Below are positions 51,532 to 59,009 of a stretch of 64,000 nt of DNA, one piece after another (positions within the stretch are counted from its first letter, which is position 1; every line of letters begins with the position of its first letter). The stretch is from Candidatus Heimdallarchaeota archaeon. GTDB lineage: Archaea > Asgardarchaeota > Heimdallarchaeia > JABLTI01. The DNA lies in contig JAHLVW010000083.1 in the NCBI GenBank assembly GCA_019058275.1, forward strand, positions 35,570-99,569, given 5' to 3'. The notes under the pieces were generated by a model. The model searched no databases and was not told where the DNA came from. It saw only the letters and a list, made by a program, of their open reading frames with translations. Position numbers and translations under genes: made by a program.

Positions 51532-53460
51532 TTACACCTTTTGTTTAATTTTCACTACGGGACCACTTCTCATATGTTTCATATCAAAACCAGAAACTAA
51601 AGCTTGTCCAACTCCTACAAGTTCTTTATCAACATTCAAAACTACCACAGCATCTGAGGGTCTAATATCCAAATCTGCGTCAACCACGCCAACAGCAAAA
51701 AGTGTTGATCCTTGTAATTCCTTGCCTTCAAAAATCACATGATATTTTGGCTTCTTAGCTAAAACATTACCAGTTTCTATTGACAATGTTAGTTGCCCTG
51801 TTTCTTGATGTATAACACCTAATTGTTTTCTTTCTCGCATTACTAGAAGTGGCTGTCTTGGTTTTCCTCTGAGCCTACATTTCTCATTAAATAATCCCTC
51901 TCCAATACCTAAACCAAATTGATAATCTGCAATTGTACGTATTTTATCGACATCGGAATAATTTGTTATTGGAGGTAATTTTTCTAATAGTTTACTTAGT
52001 TCCTTTGATAAATCTGACAGACTTATTTGAGATGTTGCTTTGCTTTTTAACGAAGTATATTTGAACTTCATTTTAAGGTTCTTTTCAGTTTCTTCGCATA
52101 ATTCGATATATTCATCACTAACATGTGCAATAACAGTCATCTTTAATTTCTTTGCTTTTTCTAATACACCAGTTAATTGATATACAGCAATTTCCTTTTC
52201 TTCAAAACTCCAATCACCAGTTACAGGAATATCATAGTGAGCTGCAGGATAAACGGTTTCTAATTCTCTAGGGATTACACCTAGAGGAGATGTTAAAATC
52301 AGTTCTTGTATGTATCCTCCTTTCCTTTTATCTAAAGAATCTAGTGTATTCAGGAATTTCTTATGACTTTTAGATTGGGAATATGGTTTCCTAGCAGAGC
52401 ACGGAAATATGACAACAATTTTCTTTTTGTCAGGAATTTTGTATCTATCAAGCATTCTTCTTTGAAATCCTTGTATAGCCGGTCGATAAAAACTATAGGT
52501 AGTAATATGGTTGATTGGTGCTGTTTGCCAAGTTGCTGTTCTCGAGATAAATAAGTCAGAATAATATTTATCAAGTAATCGTAGTGCTGTTCCACTAAAT
52601 ACATTTGAATGAACCATCTGTTCTATATAACTTCTTAACTCTTGATTGCGTATCGCATTACGGATTTCTCTTATCTTTTTAGCTAGCATCATTTTGTTAT
52701 GTTTCTCTAAAAATGTGCTATTGGAGTTTTGTGGATCTTTTTTCAGCAAGTTAGTGATTTTGTCTACACTAGTACATGCTTCGCAAAAACAAGGTAACTC
52801 TTTAATTCTATCTAGCTGTTTACCTGAAAAATCAGTAAGGTAAAAGGATTGCTTGGCAGCAATTTTAGCGAAATCTGTATTAAAAACATCAATACCAGCA
52901 TAAGCAAATATTGGTATAAAAGTATGAGGAATAGGTGACAGAAGATACAATATTGTATCAATTGGCAACTGCTCTTTTATTGTTCCAAGAAAAGTAGTTG
53001 CTTGTCTTGGCCTGTTTAGTAAGGGGAGGAAATTTGTTATTGCAATATTTCTTATCTCAAAATCAGATATTATTTGTAAAACTTGTTTCAACGTCTCATT
53101 TGAGTCAGTTGGCTGAATAGTTATAGCAACCTTTTCTATGTTGAGAGATTCAATTATTTTTGGAAGTGCTTCTTTTGTTGCACTTAGATGCCTATCAATG
53201 ATTGATTTATCTACAGTTTTATGCATGAAAATGTTAGCTACATTGGCATAATCATCTACAAATTTCTCGGAGGAATTAGGTTTGATACTACTTTGAGGAA
53301 TATTCATGGTAAAATAATTATCCTCTTCACCTATTTGCCAAAAGATTCTTTCTCCACTTTTGTTAACAGTCATTGTTGTCGGAATTTCAATTTGCTTATC
53401 TTTGTCTTTAATTTTAGCTAATTTAGCAAAACCTGAAGAGACTGTGAGTTGGAATTTCAT
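51532..53460 (-). CDS. arcS: Archaeosine synthase subunit alpha
   Basis: TGT-like N-terminal part, PCSARKPYSQSKSH, TSPLGVIPRELE, YDIPVTGDW, C-terminal PUA. Confidence 0.93.
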   Translation of the reverse strand: MKFQLTVSSGFAKLAKIKDKDKQIEIPTTMTVNKSGERIFWQIGEEDNYFTMNIPQSSIKPNSSEKFVDDYANVANIFMHKTVDKSIIDRHLSATKEALPKIIESLNIEKVAITIQPTDSNETLKQVLQIISDFEIRNIAITNFLPLLNRPRQATTFLGTIKEQLPIDTILYLLSPIPHTFIPIFAYAGIDVFNTDFAKIAAKQSFYLTDFSGKQLDRIKELPCFCEACTSVDKITNLLKKDPQNSNSTFLEKHNKMMLAKKIREIRNAIRNQELRSYIEQMVHSNVFSGTALRLLDKYYSDLFISRTATWQTAPINHITTYSFYRPAIQGFQRRMLDRYKIPDKKKIVVIFPCSARKPYSQSKSHKKFLNTLDSLDKRKGGYIQELILTSPLGVIPRELETVYPAAHYDIPVTGDWSFEEKEIAVYQLTGVLEKAKKLKMTVIAHVSDEYIELCEETEKNLKMKFKYTSLKSKATSQISLSDLSKELSKLLEKLPPITNYSDVDKIRTIADYQFGLGIGEGLFNEKCRLRGKPRQPLLVMRERKQLGVIHQETGQLTLSIETGNVLAKKPKYHVIFEGKELQGSTLFAVGVVDADLDIRPSDAVVVLNVDKELVGVGQALVSGFDMKHMRSGPVVKIKQKV

Positions 53461-53606: not shown

Positions 53607-54341
53607 TCATTTTTCTTCGTTCATTTTTACTCCACAATGGATACAAAACTCGCTCTTTCCATGTGGAAGTTTTTTACCACATTGTGAACAGAAGTTTGTA
53701 AATTCAGCCATAGGTCCAAACATTTTCAGACCAGTCATTATAGAATAATTAGCCAAATCTATTAACTGGGGTAGAGCTACTTCCATTCTCCTTAGCTTAC
53801 CATGTGTTGGTGAGGTAGCTTCTTCAGATACTGTTGTTAGTACAATGAATTTTGTGTTTATCAAGTCAGTAGGGATTTCAATAGGTGCATCTCTTTGTGA
53901 TCCAGCTTTATTGTAGATAGTAAAACCTTCCAAACATTTCAAATCATCAATAAGATCAACTAAAATGCTTTGAATCATAGAGCTTTCGCCTAATACTTTG
54001 ACAAAAGTTTCAGGTTTCCCTCTAAGTGAGAATTGTGTTGGTTCTACAGAGTTAATTTGTAATGTTGCATGTGCACCCTCTCCTGAAACTGACATTCTTT
54101 CTTTTGAAATCCAAACAAATGTATAATGTGTTAAGCCATCAGAAGATGCTTTCTTTGGTAGAGTGAGAGCAATCACTCCATCCATATCCAATCCTCTAAG
54201 GAAGAATGCTCCTAATGGGACCATATTTTTCTTTCTACCCTCTTCTTCAATTATTCTTCTTAAAGGATAATCACTTGGTATTTGCCTACCTATACAATAT
54301 GATACAAGCTTTACAAATTTGTCTTTGTTTAGCAACAGCAC
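53607..54341 (-). CDS. Hypothetical protein with a C-terminal zinc ribbon
   Basis: FCSQCG...FCIHCG. Confidence 0.7.
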   Translation of the reverse strand: MLLLNKDKFVKLVSYCIGRQIPSDYPLRRIIEEEGRKKNMVPLGAFFLRGLDMDGVIALTLPKKASSDGLTHYTFVWISKERMSVSGEGAHATLQINSVEPTQFSLRGKPETFVKVLGESSMIQSILVDLIDDLKCLEGFTIYNKAGSQRDAPIEIPTDLINTKFIVLTTVSEEATSPTHGKLRRMEVALPQLIDLANYSIMTGLKMFGPMAEFTNFCSQCGKKLPHGKSEFCIHCGVKMNEEK

Positions 54342-54554: not shown

Positions 54555-55778
54555 TTGGGTGGAATAAATCTGATAGAAGGCATTAGTGATAAAATTAAGT
54601 TGCTTAGAGATAAGTATCAATTTAATTATGAATTTATTAAACGCTTGAGTTTCTATTATGGCTATATGAGAACTGAGAACCTTATCCAGAGTCTTAAAAC
54701 ACATACATCTACAATTTCAGTTAGAGTAAACACCCAATTTACAACAGCAGCTAAACTTCTTGAAGCGTTTGTTGAAAAAGATATCCCCGCTAAACAACAC
54801 CCAGTATTAAAAGAAGCAATTCTTATAGACATTAATGAAGCATCATCGATCCCACGTAAAGATAAAGTAGCTACTTTGAACTATTATAGATCTGTTAACA
54901 AAGTTCTACTTGGTTCAGGATTAGGAGCAAAAGATTTCATTGTACCCGATGATGTTAATTTTGGAGACGAAATATCTCTTATCGATAAGAAAGATAATGT
55001 TGTTGCTAATGGAATCTTAATGATGGGTGTAGATGAAATCAATGCTAAGAAAAAGGGTGTTGCCATAAAAATAACAGATAGCAAGTATAAAGTACCAAAT
55101 CTTAATGGCTTGAAAGAATTCTTACGAGGTCATTTCATTATTCAAACCATACCAAACATGCTTATTGGGTTAATGGTTAATCTCAAACCTAAAGATCGTC
55201 TTATGGATATGATTACCAGAAACGGAGATATTTTATCTCATATTTGGCAGAGAAACTCAAAAATTGATTCAAAAATAATTGCTATAGATAATTCTGCTCA
55301 TAGGTTATCTAAATTTGATGAGACTATAAAGCGATTACGAATGTATAAAGCCCCTATTGAAAAAATGCAGCTGAATATGAGGACATTTGCTCAGAAATTT
55401 AGTAAAGATGAAACATTCGATTGGATAATAATTAATCCAACTTCATCTGAAACGGGATTACGACCTAAGATTTTTGAGGACGTTGACGAAAAAAATATTC
55501 TTGAAATGGTTGTAACACAGAAAGAATTCATGGAACATGCTGCAAGATTGATTAAAAGGGGAGGTACAATTTTCTATATTACTTCAAGCATAGATCCAGC
55601 AGAGAATGAAGAGATAATTAGTTATGCTGTTGATGAATTAGAATTATCTATAGATGAACAGGAAATCTTTCTTGGAGATAAGTGTCAATCTACATTTGAG
55701 GGGTCAGAATTATTACAATATTTCTTCCCAGATAAACATGACACACCGGGACAGTTCATAGCAAAATTAACCAAATAG
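54555..55778 (+). CDS. RsmB/NOP2/NSUN6-like RNA m5C methyltransferase homolog with a PUA-like domain, apparently catalytically degenerate
   Basis: VRVNT, GLRPK, ENEEII, FFPDKHDTPGQFIAKL; both catalytic Cys are missing. Confidence 0.8.
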   Translation: MGGINLIEGISDKIKLLRDKYQFNYEFIKRLSFYYGYMRTENLIQSLKTHTSTISVRVNTQFTTAAKLLEAFVEKDIPAKQHPVLKEAILIDINEASSIPRKDKVATLNYYRSVNKVLLGSGLGAKDFIVPDDVNFGDEISLIDKKDNVVANGILMMGVDEINAKKKGVAIKITDSKYKVPNLNGLKEFLRGHFIIQTIPNMLIGLMVNLKPKDRLMDMITRNGDILSHIWQRNSKIDSKIIAIDNSAHRLSKFDETIKRLRMYKAPIEKMQLNMRTFAQKFSKDETFDWIIINPTSSETGLRPKIFEDVDEKNILEMVVTQKEFMEHAARLIKRGGTIFYITSSIDPAENEEIISYAVDELELSIDEQEIFLGDKCQSTFEGSELLQYFFPDKHDTPGQFIAKLTK

Positions 55779-55793
55779 TATTGGGAGAATAGT

Positions 55794-56459
55794 TTGATGA
55801 GTAAAATTGTTGTAGGTGCTGATGAAGCAGGAAGAGGATTAATAATAGGTCCAATGGTTATTGGTGCGAGTGCCATAGACAATTCTATAGCTGATAACTT
55901 TCGTCAACTAGGAATAAAGGATAGTAAAAAATACACTTCTGTTAGAAAAATAGATGAACATGCAAATGCAATTAAAAAAACTTCATTTGCTTGGTCAGTA
56001 AAAGTTCTTTCTGCAGAGGTTCTGAATAATTTTAATAAAAACGGTATGACTATGGATGAAGCAGAAGCTTTTGCGTTCTTTAGAGCAATAGAGGAAATTG
56101 TCAAGAAAGTTAAGGGTGTTCAAGAATACCAAGTTGACAATTTTCAAGCTGTTGCTAGATTGAAATCTTTGTTAAAGAAGAATAATTCAACTAGACACAT
56201 TAAATTAATTGTAATGCCAAAAGCTGAAAGTAAATATATTGCAGTAAGTGCTGGTTCTATACTTGCTAGATCAAAATCTCTTCATGAATTATCAAATATC
56301 AGAAACAAGTACGGTAATTTTGGGTCTGGAAGCACTAATGATATAAAAACGATTAATTGGTTGAAACAATATTATAGAGAGAACCAAAAGTGGCCTTCCA
56401 AAATTGTTCGAACACATTGGAAAACAATAGATCGCTTAGAGAGGGAAATTAAATTTTAA
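55794..56459 (+). CDS. rnhB: Ribonuclease HII
   Basis: GADEAGRG, GPMV, GIKDSKK, KAE...VSAGSILA, FGSG, VRTHW. Confidence 0.95.
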   Translation: MMSKIVVGADEAGRGLIIGPMVIGASAIDNSIADNFRQLGIKDSKKYTSVRKIDEHANAIKKTSFAWSVKVLSAEVLNNFNKNGMTMDEAEAFAFFRAIEEIVKKVKGVQEYQVDNFQAVARLKSLLKKNNSTRHIKLIVMPKAESKYIAVSAGSILARSKSLHELSNIRNKYGNFGSGSTNDIKTINWLKQYYRENQKWPSKIVRTHWKTIDRLEREIKF

Positions 56460-56486: not shown

Positions 56487-57194
56487 TTAAATCATGTAAT
56501 CAAAAGTTATTCCAATTTCGTCCCATTCAACATCAATCTTTTTCAATTCGTTTAATGTCTTATTTAAATCATCAGCTTTTTCTATTGAGATTATAGAGCC
56601 AAATGCAATGGGATCATTTCGTGGCAAGTTATCAAAATCTGTTTCACTTTCAACAATATGTGACTCAAGGTTATCATTATCTTTAAAAAATAATTGATTC
56701 ATTAACACATTTAATTTGGGACTTTTCTTTATGTTACCCAGAATTAATTTTGCTTCATTGAATGATGAGATTTCTCTATCAGCTTTAATTTCACTTGGTT
56801 TTAGATCCTTCTTTACCAATGTAGGTATAATCCATTGGTCAATTGTCGAGACAACTTGCTCGAGTAATTCAGCTTTATTTGCTTTTGAAAATGTTATTGC
56901 TTTTTCTAGGAAATCTTCTGCAATCTCAGATTTCCTAAATTTAGGAAGAATGCCAATTTCTTGAATGGTAGCGATTTTAGTATCTACAGCTTCTATATAA
57001 TCAGCAACCACAAAAGCATAACCGACTGGTTTGTCCGCATCATAAGCAACCAGAAAGATTTTGTTTTCATGTGGTATTTTAACAAGCTGTAACAAATCTT
57101 CAGCTAACCATATGCCTTCAAAGCATTTGCTTACAATTGAAGAAACTTCTTTGTAAAGCTTATCAGGTCTTCCTTGCACAATTTTTATTGCCAT
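56487..57194 (-). CDS. GNAT-fold protein with an extra C-terminal domain
   Basis: FLVAYDADKPVGYA, IQEIGILPKFRKSEIA. Confidence 0.7.
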   Translation of the reverse strand: MAIKIVQGRPDKLYKEVSSIVSKCFEGIWLAEDLLQLVKIPHENKIFLVAYDADKPVGYAFVVADYIEAVDTKIATIQEIGILPKFRKSEIAEDFLEKAITFSKANKAELLEQVVSTIDQWIIPTLVKKDLKPSEIKADREISSFNEAKLILGNIKKSPKLNVLMNQLFFKDNDNLESHIVESETDFDNLPRNDPIAFGSIISIEKADDLNKTLNELKKIDVEWDEIGITFDYMI

Positions 57195-57290
57195 TTTTCC
57201 TTCCTCGGTATGGATATCTTTATTCCTTAAAATTCTAGGTCACAATGGAGTATAAATACATGTTCAAAGAACAGCAATATGGCTTTTCTG

Positions 57291-58331
57291 TTAAATTTTT
57301 AAGAAGAATTCATTTTTTAGTGTCCCCAATGTCAATTGATAATATTCCCTTTTTCCGTTGATTTTTACTGTTTCTAATTTCCCTCTTACATTCACCTTAT
57401 CGTTTTCTTTTGCAATATCAGCATATCGTCCTCTTACAGAGAATATCCGATTGGGTATACAATCTATTGTCTTTGATTTGGTTTTTACTTCAACTTCCTT
57501 TAGATTGTAAATACATGGTGTAAAAATAGAAAGTTCGTCATTTGCTATTGTAGCTTCGATTTCTAACTCACCCAGAGAACGAATTTCTGTGTGTTGATAA
57601 GGTTCGTAATACTCATCAGGTAATAAAACTAGCCTAATGTAAAAATCTCTGCTCGAGATAGTTCCTTGTAATCGTTTATCCTTTTCTAGGTCATAAAATG
57701 AATTATAATCAATTTGGTTTTGTTGTCCCCTTTGATTCCATAAAGACTCTAATTCAGTCTTTGAATACCTACTCACTTTAAAACATGAATCAAAAATCTC
57801 TGGCATGTTTTGATAAATTGCTTGACCGTTTTTCCTTCCGTAAACTACTAAATCAATATCTGATTTTTCATTATGCAAGTCAACCAGAATGGACCCAGAT
57901 ATACCAATATTCTCTAGTTTTACATTACTATATTCTTCAATCTGAGTTGCCAATTCAAGTGCTATTTTCTCTAATTTATCCAACTTCTGTAAATCTTCTT
58001 CGACTAATCCCTTCATCTTTAGTAGTGGATTGTAAATTGTTTGAATTCTATCTTTCAGAACTGCTTGGAGGGATCCTCTTCCTTTTGGATCATCAAACAA
58101 GTAATCTGGGAATTTTTTCTTCAGAAAAGCATAACGTTCATCCAAATCATACAATTTTCTGTATCCAGTAGGTGAATCTGTTTTATCTAATTTAAAATAC
58201 TTCACTGGTATATATCTTACAAAAGCAATTACTCGATCATCTGGATGACTTATGCCTTTGACGTCAAAAATCATTTTCTCTTTTGAACTAATGAAAAAAC
58301 CTTCGATGGGATTTAGAATACTTTGGTTCAA
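57291..58331 (-). CDS. Archaeal predicted nucleotidyltransferase (COG1665-like)
   Basis: FDVKGISHP, AFVRY, IGISGSILV...SDIDLVVYG, C-terminal OB-like VRGKLE. Confidence 0.82.
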   Translation of the reverse strand: MNQSILNPIEGFFISSKEKMIFDVKGISHPDDRVIAFVRYIPVKYFKLDKTDSPTGYRKLYDLDERYAFLKKKFPDYLFDDPKGRGSLQAVLKDRIQTIYNPLLKMKGLVEEDLQKLDKLEKIALELATQIEEYSNVKLENIGISGSILVDLHNEKSDIDLVVYGRKNGQAIYQNMPEIFDSCFKVSRYSKTELESLWNQRGQQNQIDYNSFYDLEKDKRLQGTISSRDFYIRLVLLPDEYYEPYQHTEIRSLGELEIEATIANDELSIFTPCIYNLKEVEVKTKSKTIDCIPNRIFSVRGRYADIAKENDKVNVRGKLETVKINGKREYYQLTLGTLKNEFFLKI

Positions 58332-58364
58332 ATTTCTACAACCAACTTTAGCAAATTCTTACTT

Positions 58365-59009
58365 TCATTCTATTTCAGAAGAGATTTTCTCTAGAATTTT
58401 ATCAACTAATTGATTATATATTAGATTGTCAAAAGATACTCTTTCAATTACATTTGCGTGATATTTTATCAATTCCATTAACCTTATGACTTCAGGTGAG
58501 GTAGAACCTTTAGTTTTGGAGAAATGTAAAACTCTAGTTGTATGTATTAATATTTCAAGTAAAGATGAAAATGCTCTTGTATAAGGGGGGTAAAAATCTT
58601 CTTTAATTTGGAATTGAACAATTTTGCATTCGAATATTGCTCTTTCTAGTTCAATCTTCTCGTTTTTTACTTCAGCTATGATATATCTGTTTATGCATTC
58701 CTTTAATACTGGAGCACTTATTTTAGTTATTTTTTTGAATGATTCTTCAGGCAATTCATCTTGAAACAACGCACAAATTACAAAGAGTTCTGGATTACAA
58801 GTGAAATTAATCACACAGATTTTTGACTGATGCATGTTTTGATAGGTATCTGTCTGAAAAAATGCTCGAAGTATTAAATCACCATTACTATCGATTGAGA
58901 TACCCATAGGAGCAGCATTTGGTTTTCCTTTCTCATCGAATGTTGATACTATAGTTTCATAAATAATCCCTTTTTCTAATGGTAATCCTTTCATTGATAT
59001 CCTTCCCAT
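58365..59009 (-). CDS. DUF447 family protein (split-barrel, methanopterin-linked)
   Basis: IYETIVST...PNAAPMGI...TDTYQN...VINF. Confidence 0.85.
   Translation of the reverse strand: MGRISMKGLPLEKGIIYETIVSTFDEKGKPNAAPMGISIDSNGDLILRAFFQTDTYQNMHQSKICVINFTCNPELFVICALFQDELPEESFKKITKISAPVLKECINRYIIAEVKNEKIELERAIFECKIVQFQIKEDFYPPYTRAFSSLLEILIHTTRVLHFSKTKGSTSPEVIRLMELIKYHANVIERVSFDNLIYNQLVDKILEKISSEIE

Follow-up and report, generated by a model that had tools for sequence, protein, structure and literature searches.

The closest described relatives of the protein reported here are the archaeal and human NSUN6 enzymes. NSun6 of Pyrococcus horikoshii (PhNSun6, PH1991; structure 5zvd) is a tRNA cytosine72-C5 methyltransferase (PMC6393295). 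In human NSUN6, activity is lost in the variants C373A, K248A, and D323A, and binding of S-adenosylmethionine (SAM) is lost in D323A, D266A, and K271A, D323 being needed both for SAM binding and for cytosine recognition; no activity is left when the motif VI Cys is mutated, whereas the motif IV mutants C326S/N keep about 1/26 of wild-type activity (PMC5499824). Here we describe an NSUN6-like gene of Candidatus Heimdallarchaeota archaeon in which both catalytic Cys are replaced, and which is followed directly by a gene for a paralogue of ribonuclease (RNase) HII. The gene lies in a stretch of 64,000 nucleotides (assembly GCA_019058275.1, contig JAHLVW010000083.1, positions 35,570 to 99,569 of the forward strand), called the window below. 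Its product, to which we refer as dead NSUN6, is very probably an inactive pseudoenzyme maintained by selection, to judge from its sequence and that of its relatives.

Some methyltransferase folds have stayed under selection although they no longer bind their cofactor or catalyze, and now serve in nucleic-acid binding or scaffolding; examples are the non-catalytic paralogues METTL14 (with METTL3), Trm6 (with Trm61), and DNMT3L (with DNMT3A). Dead paralogues are well documented among kinases and some methyltransferases. METTL14, Trm6, and DNMT3L act with an active paralogue, whereas most genomes with dead NSUN6 lack an active NSUN6, and the conserved neighbor of dead NSUN6 encodes a nuclease. 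In full-text literature searches, NSUN6 was covered by papers on the archaeal and human enzymes; no paper on Asgard NSUN6 or on a dead lineage of the NSUN family turned up.

The open reading frame (ORF) had been proposed to be full length in a first interpretation made from the DNA letters without database searches (the sequence-only reading), and we found it exactly as claimed, intact over 407 residues. It begins with a TTG codon immediately 3' of an in-frame TGA. The public gene call for the identical protein (P0002, 392 aa) starts 15 residues later, at the TTG at position 54600 (residue 16), and the true start is thus uncertain; the first six residues have low confidence in the AlphaFold2 (AF2) model. 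Pfam assigned residues 207-405 to the RsmB/NOL1/NOP2/Sun family (PF01189, Methyltr_RsmB-F, 82.1 bits against a cut-off of 27) and residues 27-92 to the RsmF-B_ferredox family (PF22458, 29.8 bits, cut-off 27), with a sub-threshold PUA match at residues 132-174 (20.9 bits, cut-off 24.8). The NCBIfam models for RsmB, Nop2, and tRNA-cytosine methyltransferases matched far under their cut-offs. The best match of a HMMER search against the Protein Data Bank (PDB) was PhNSun6 (5zvd, E 8e-39), followed by human NSUN6 (5wwq, E 4e-14).

The AF2 model, built from a multiple sequence alignment (MSA) of 33 relatives, had a mean local confidence (pLDDT) of 93.4 and a predicted template modeling score (pTM) of 0.90. 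Foldseek placed it closest to 5zvd, with template modeling (TM) scores of 0.80/0.84 over 386 columns, and then to human NSUN6; it also matched NOP2, RsmB, and RsmF, which have the Rossmann-type methyltransferase core. In the ESM Atlas the model matched an archaeal NSUN6 cluster (TM 0.87/0.91). An RRM-like motif is present and a PUA domain is inserted before the methyltransferase core, as in the NSUN6 subfamily, and the protein falls within archaeal NSUN6 in the trees. Compared with PhNSun6, it has the same length and three-part architecture at 28% identity, and the two share the motifs RVNT, G-x-F-x-x-Q, RPK, ENE, and C-terminal G-x-F-[IV]-A-K-L. Human NSUN6 (5wwq-5wwt, 9imb; PMC5499824) has the same fold (TM about 0.76-0.79) but differs from the window protein in its greater length, its Lys-rich D-stem loop, and its full catalytic activity. 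The predicted structure thus shows all three parts, the RRM-like domain, the PUA insert, and the Rossmann core, to be intact.

The active site is not. Residues were mapped by HMMER alignment to 5zvd and 5wwq, with their roles taken from PMC6393295 and PMC5499824; human NSUN6 was the reference for roles both in the active site and at the CCA end. Both catalytic Cys are absent, as the sequence-only reading had stated: Ser344 takes the place of the motif VI nucleophile (human C373, Ph C327), and Ser297 that of the motif IV Cys, which acts as general base or in release (human C326, Ph C280). The three strings that it quoted are present, at the positions given in the table. The AAAPGGK segment of motif I reads ITRNGDI, so that the strictly conserved Lys which contacts SAM and cytosine (human K248) is now Ile226; the Pro is also replaced, and the bulky Ile220 and Arg222 sit where AAPGG has small residues. 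Further replacements affect the motif IV Asp (human D323; Asn294), the adenine-contacting Asp (Asn274), and the archaeal-specific, adenine-contacting Tyr304 (Thr321). By hand mapping of the alignment, 5 of the 13 SAH-pocket residues of PhNSun6 (SAH, S-adenosylhomocysteine; list from PMC6393295) are left, namely M219, G224, D245, R250, and F325. A search for another Cys in the active site, which would have saved catalysis, identified no conserved alternative: the sole Cys of the protein, C377, lies in a C-terminal hairpin at a position where just 22 of 35 relatives have Cys, 8 have Gly, and canonical enzymes have Gly, and we rejected it as a catalytic residue. We infer that the window protein would be unable to bind SAM or to methylate cytosine.

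These losses are shared by the relatives of the protein. A database search returned 38 clusters at 44-100% identity, all from Heimdall or other Asgard metagenome bins, below which the matches fell to at most 30% identity and were canonical NSUN6. We compared 35 members of this dead clade with 47 canonical NSUN6 proteins. All 47 canonical proteins have the nucleophile Cys of motif VI, the Lys and the Pro of motif I, and the Asp and the Cys of motif IV; in the dead clade the first three are found in 0/35, the motif IV Asp in 2/35, and the motif IV Cys in 5/35. The residues shown in place of the nucleophile are Asn (21), Ser (6), Lys (2), Arg (2), Glu (1), and Gln (1), and the old SAM-pocket positions vary across the clade as well. 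In total, 13 positions that are invariant in canonical NSUN6 are lost in the dead clade, mostly in the catalytic and SAM motifs, and the dead and canonical forms share 34 conserved positions. All 35 members retain RPK, the two Glu of ENE, and G224, and the Thr preceding the old nucleophile position and the C-terminal Phe are each found in 34/35. Within RVNT, R57 and N59 do not vary across the dead clade and are also conserved in canonical NSUN6. The dead clade is basic, with a median isoelectric point of 9.08 versus 8.9.

The suggestion that the PUA-like region is retained was right for the fold but not for the residue that recognizes the substrate. In the tRNA C72 methyltransferase NSUN6, an aromatic residue (Ph Tyr112, human Tyr131) stacks on A76 at the tRNA CCA end. 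This residue is Tyr or Phe in 47/47 canonical proteins; it is Gly124 in the window protein, Gly in 29/35 members of the dead clade, and aromatic in none of the 35.

None of the relatives, even those at 44% identity, has a truncated ORF. The pairwise ratio of nonsynonymous to synonymous substitution rates (dN/dS) among close relatives was 0.07-0.25 for dead NSUN6, similar to that of the flanking genes (0.03-0.15). The comparisons mark the Cys loss as old and clade-wide, and the gene as evidently under purifying selection through a long diversification. Together with the intact fold, this supports the proposal of the sequence-only reading that a non-catalytic protein has been retained.

An active paralogue had also been suggested as worth looking for, and an intact NSUN6 is present in the genome of the window, on another contig. 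This genome has four RsmB-family genes, which encode a Trm4-like protein, an RsmB/Nop2-like protein, an intact NSUN6 with AAPGGK, the motif IV Cys, and the TC motif all in place, and dead NSUN6. Among 400 genomes of the phylum, close relatives of the dead form (>370 bits) were found only in the GTDB family of the window, in 11 of its 12 genomes. The remaining genome (G090) was rejected as a genuine case of absence: its assembly is 86% complete and lacks the entire region from ArcS to GNAT, so the absence is an assembly gap and not evidence. Only 2 of the 12 genomes were found to have the intact NSUN6, and the majority of the family's genomes have the dead form as the sole NSUN6-like gene found. 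In two relatives (G081 and G082) the syntenic site has the upstream gene followed by the amidohydrolase gene, with spacers of 81 and 255 nt and no NSUN6 remnant. The live gene is thus cleanly missing there, and the dead form does not depend on it. A partnership between dead and live NSUN6, which we also considered, is unlikely given the same distribution. In both genomes that have the intact NSUN6, its gene adjoins that of a 456-aa amidohydrolase.

The sequence-only reading had placed dead NSUN6 in apparent co-transcription with rnhB, across a 15-nt gap. The gap was confirmed, and the two genes form a tight unit in every relative examined, but the downstream gene is not the housekeeping rnhB; it encodes a divergent, lineage-specific RNase HII paralogue. 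The genome of the window has a second RNase HII, on contig 28 (L057), which scores higher (175 versus 113 bits). RNase HII of the window type (>280 bits) is present in 10 of the 12 genomes of the family, all with dead NSUN6; the two exceptions are a genome whose contig ends just past dead NSUN6 (G086) and the incomplete G090. Most of the 10 genomes also show a housekeeping RNase HII, about 30% identical to the paralogue. Wherever the sequence is assembled in a relative, the paralogue lies directly downstream of dead NSUN6, overlapping it by 1-20 nt or separated by a gap of at most 55 nt, the most divergent members included.

The paralogue keeps the GRG and DSK motifs and the catalytic carboxylates D10, E11, and D115; Glu stands for the fourth carboxylate of the DEDD set in the window protein, whereas several orthologues have Asp. 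It differs from housekeeping enzymes in two other respects. First, the paralogues end before the tail that carries the PCNA-interacting (PIP) box, which reads QSNLDEFF in the housekeeping copy of the window's genome (G000) and QRNLNDFF in that of G090. Second, 10/10 paralogues have GRGL or GRGI together with GSGS, whereas the housekeeping copies and the RNases HII in the PDB have GRGP and GSGY. Work on yeast and Thermotoga RNase H2 identified the Pro after GRG and the Tyr of GSGY as determinants of junction recognition (PMC3597693). Engineered loss of both abolishes the excision of single ribonucleotides and can leave cleavage of RNA/DNA hybrids, as in the yeast ribonucleotide-excision-defective (RED) mutant Rnh201 P45D-Y219A, and yeast Y219S is inactive on RNA-DNA junctions but has some activity on RNA-RNA junction hybrids (PMC3597693). 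The same two determinants are naturally absent from the paralogue, as in the RED mutant and in RNase HIII (PMC3597693), although the substitutions are Leu/Ile and Ser rather than the Asp and Ala of the RED mutant, and the activity of the paralogue is a prediction from its sequence. The window RNase HII thus looks like a natural variant of the RED type.

Proteins lacking the Cys are not confined to the clade of the window. A profile search over 1.84 billion representatives returned more Cys-less NSUN6-like proteins, which form two groups. Members of a long-form group (430-560 aa) have T-H-S-[IL]-D-P where canonical proteins have T-C-T, and their counterpart of A-A-P-G-G-K is x-D-N-G-E-[IMV]-A; they were found in four other families of Heimdallarchaeia, one member being labeled Kariarchaeaceae, and in one family the long form is a second paralogue beside a canonical NSUN6 that groups with a record labeled Heimdallarchaeaceae. 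In the long form, the conserved His at the old nucleophile position might be a sign of another chemistry. The second group comes from three families of other classes and has kept the canonical PUA motif G-A-x-L-Y-x-P-G-V. In a 67-row tree, which was quick and has long branches, all 31 Cys-less rows formed one clade (support of 97 in the SH-like approximate likelihood ratio test, SH-aLRT) with an intact Asgard NSUN6 group as sister; the canonical NSUN6 of Heimdall genomes, including that of the window's own genome, branched elsewhere. An approximately unbiased (AU) test on a 30-row subset did not reject a grouping of the window's clade with Heimdall canonical NSUN6 (p 0.161). Given the nature of the tree and this result, a single ancient loss behind all Cys-less forms is favored but not proven. 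The putative pseudoenzyme lineage is much broader than the clade of the window and is elsewhere unlinked to RNase HII.

Overall, we favor, as fairly probable, the reading that dead NSUN6 is an inert pseudoenzyme of the NSUN6 branch that binds nucleic acid and works with the RNase HII paralogue. Binding would use the elements that are invariant in dead and live forms alike (RVNT, G-x-F-x-x-Q, RPK, ENE, and the C-terminal Phe) together with a basic surface. The RNase HII paralogue is encoded directly downstream and is probably translationally coupled to dead NSUN6, and as it has neither the PCNA-docking tail nor the junction-specificity residues, the dead methyltransferase may supply its substrate targeting. 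Taken by itself, a functional partnership of the two proteins is a tentative proposal. More speculative still, and in our view doubtful in this specific form, is that dead NSUN6 acts as the targeting subunit of a two-protein nuclease, recruiting an RNase HII that is independent of PCNA and has lost its specificity for ribonucleotide excision to one particular structure of RNA or of an RNA/DNA hybrid, and, more broadly, that it belongs to an ancient Asgard family of RNA "readers" which derive from NSUN6 and have acquired new partners time and again.

Several observations weigh against parts of this reading. The putative RNA binding is deduced from fold and conservation, and with the PUA Tyr and other contacts to CCA and N73 changed, its ligand need not be the tRNA acceptor end. 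The whole neighborhood of 7-10 genes is syntenic within the GTDB family, and the adjacency of NSUN6 and RNase HII is, for that reason, weak evidence when taken alone. Cys-less relatives in other Asgard families have no RNase HII neighbor. A search for a fused NSUN6-RNase HII protein (a "Rosetta stone") found none. An AF2 model of the natural in-frame read-through, with the TAG codon taken as Gly, had two confident halves and a pTM of 0.65, and their relative placement was not confident; because the MSA was unpaired and the linker is short, this is a weak test of a complex, which it neither supports nor strongly contradicts.

All but the first of these observations would fit a stand-alone, non-catalytic RNA-binding or chaperone protein acting, for example, on tRNA or rRNA, for which the adjacent RNase HII gene is inherited gene order with no function. 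We regard this as a serious alternative, though somewhat unlikely. It does not readily explain why dead NSUN6 and RNase HII form a same-strand pair between opposite-strand genes, with the short overlaps or gaps kept down to 45% identity, why each is a paralogue specific to the lineage, with matching distributions, or why the RNase HII has lost its usual PCNA-docking tail.

It is improbable that dead NSUN6 is still an enzyme, with a remodeled pocket (the newly conserved W231, N234, S345, D347, R191, and R215) and a chemistry other than SAM-dependent 5-methylcytosine (m5C) formation. Such a change would account for the 20 positions that are conserved in at least 90% of the dead clade but rare in canonical NSUN6, and the His of the long-form relatives is in keeping with it. 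However, the old nucleophile position (N/S/K/R/E/Q) and the SAM pocket vary within the clade, unlike catalytic sites, and neither Pfam nor NCBIfam recognized a cofactor motif.

Still less credible is a cryptic m5C methyltransferase that uses Ser344, Ser297, or Cys377 and binds SAM in an atypical way. The residual activity of human C326S/N (PMC5499824), the ribose contacts Asp245 and Arg250 still in the window protein, and the Cys found at position 377 in most members could be cited for it. Against these stand the abolished activity of the human motif VI mutant (PMC5499824), at a position that is Ser here and variable in the clade, the lost Lys and Asp, which are otherwise strictly conserved, the bulky Ile220 and Arg222, and the members with Gly at position 377. 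A recently inactivated gene heading for loss, for which the missing catalytic residues and nothing more speak, can be dismissed, as the loss is common to 35/35 members and to more distant groups, the ORFs are full length, the dN/dS values are low, and the AF2 model is confident.

The coordinates of the pair and of its surroundings are collected in the table. The conserved block extends from the ArcS/archaeosine synthase gene upstream to three genes downstream, and its gene order is kept to about 45% identity. In relatives, MptE and PTPS genes come after the downstream genes, and a radical-SAM gene lies beyond ArcS. ArcS and the archaeal-type RNase HII, with the names of related records, point to the Asgard class Heimdallarchaeia for the genome. 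The orphan between ArcS and dead NSUN6 is 70-95% identical across the GTDB family, where it is almost exclusively found, and is better conserved than dead NSUN6; Pfam, PADLOC, and the Atlas gave no lead to its role. Among the PADLOC defense-system models the sole match was a generic methyltransferase, and Rfam had no match in the whole window.

Coordinates of dead NSUN6, its sub-features, and associated genes (window positions unless another contig is named)
Feature	Position	Strand	Remarks
ArcS/archaeosine synthase	51532-53460	-	TGT, DUF5591, TGT_C2, PUA; upstream part of conserved block
244-aa orphan	53607..54341	-	C-terminal double-zinc-ribbon-like motif; divergently transcribed from dead NSUN6
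Cys-less NSUN6-like ORF (dead NSUN6)	54555..55778	+	uninterrupted; TAG stop 55776-55778 included
RRM/ferredoxin-like sub-domain	54633..54830	+	aa 27-92; RVNT kept (R57, V58, N59, T60); PF22458
PUA-like insert	54843..55079	+	aa 97-175; CCA-stacking Tyr replaced by Gly; weak Pfam PUA
Degenerate motif I, DMITRNGDIL	55206..55235	+	aa 218-227; in place of DMAAAPGGKT
Motif IV remnant, NPTSSETGLRPK	55434..55469	+	aa 294-305; RPK kept
Motif VI remnant, ITSSIDPAENE	55578..55610	+	aa 342-352; ENE kept
15-nt spacer	55779..55793	+	GGGAG Shine-Dalgarno-like box 55783-55787, before TTG/ATG start of RNase HII gene
Lineage-specific RNase HII paralogue	55794..56459	+	221 aa; carboxylates DEDE; no PIP box; GRGL, GSGS
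Downstream part of conserved block	56487-59009	-	235-aa GNAT, 346-aa nucleotidyltransferase-fold protein, DUF447 protein
Intact NSUN6, same genome (G000), contig 69	L003:1492-2682	-	396 aa
Amidohydrolase, same contig	L003:40-1410	-	456 aa
Long-form Cys-less proteins, other genomes	L077-L087, L092, L093		genomes G010, G035, G040, G042-G049, G051, G055

In public annotations the dead NSUN6 genes appear as cytosine methyltransferases of 16S rRNA or tRNA, or else as hypothetical, and such annotations overstate the m5C capacity of the genomes that carry them. An old lineage of dead NSUN6 proteins in several families of Asgard archaea, the archaea closest to eukaryotes, offers a natural system in which to study non-methylating roles of an RNA-methyltransferase scaffold. 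Its pairing, in one family, with an RNase HII that has no PIP box and is substituted at the RED positions provides a concrete and testable hypothesis for a new mode of RNase H targeting.

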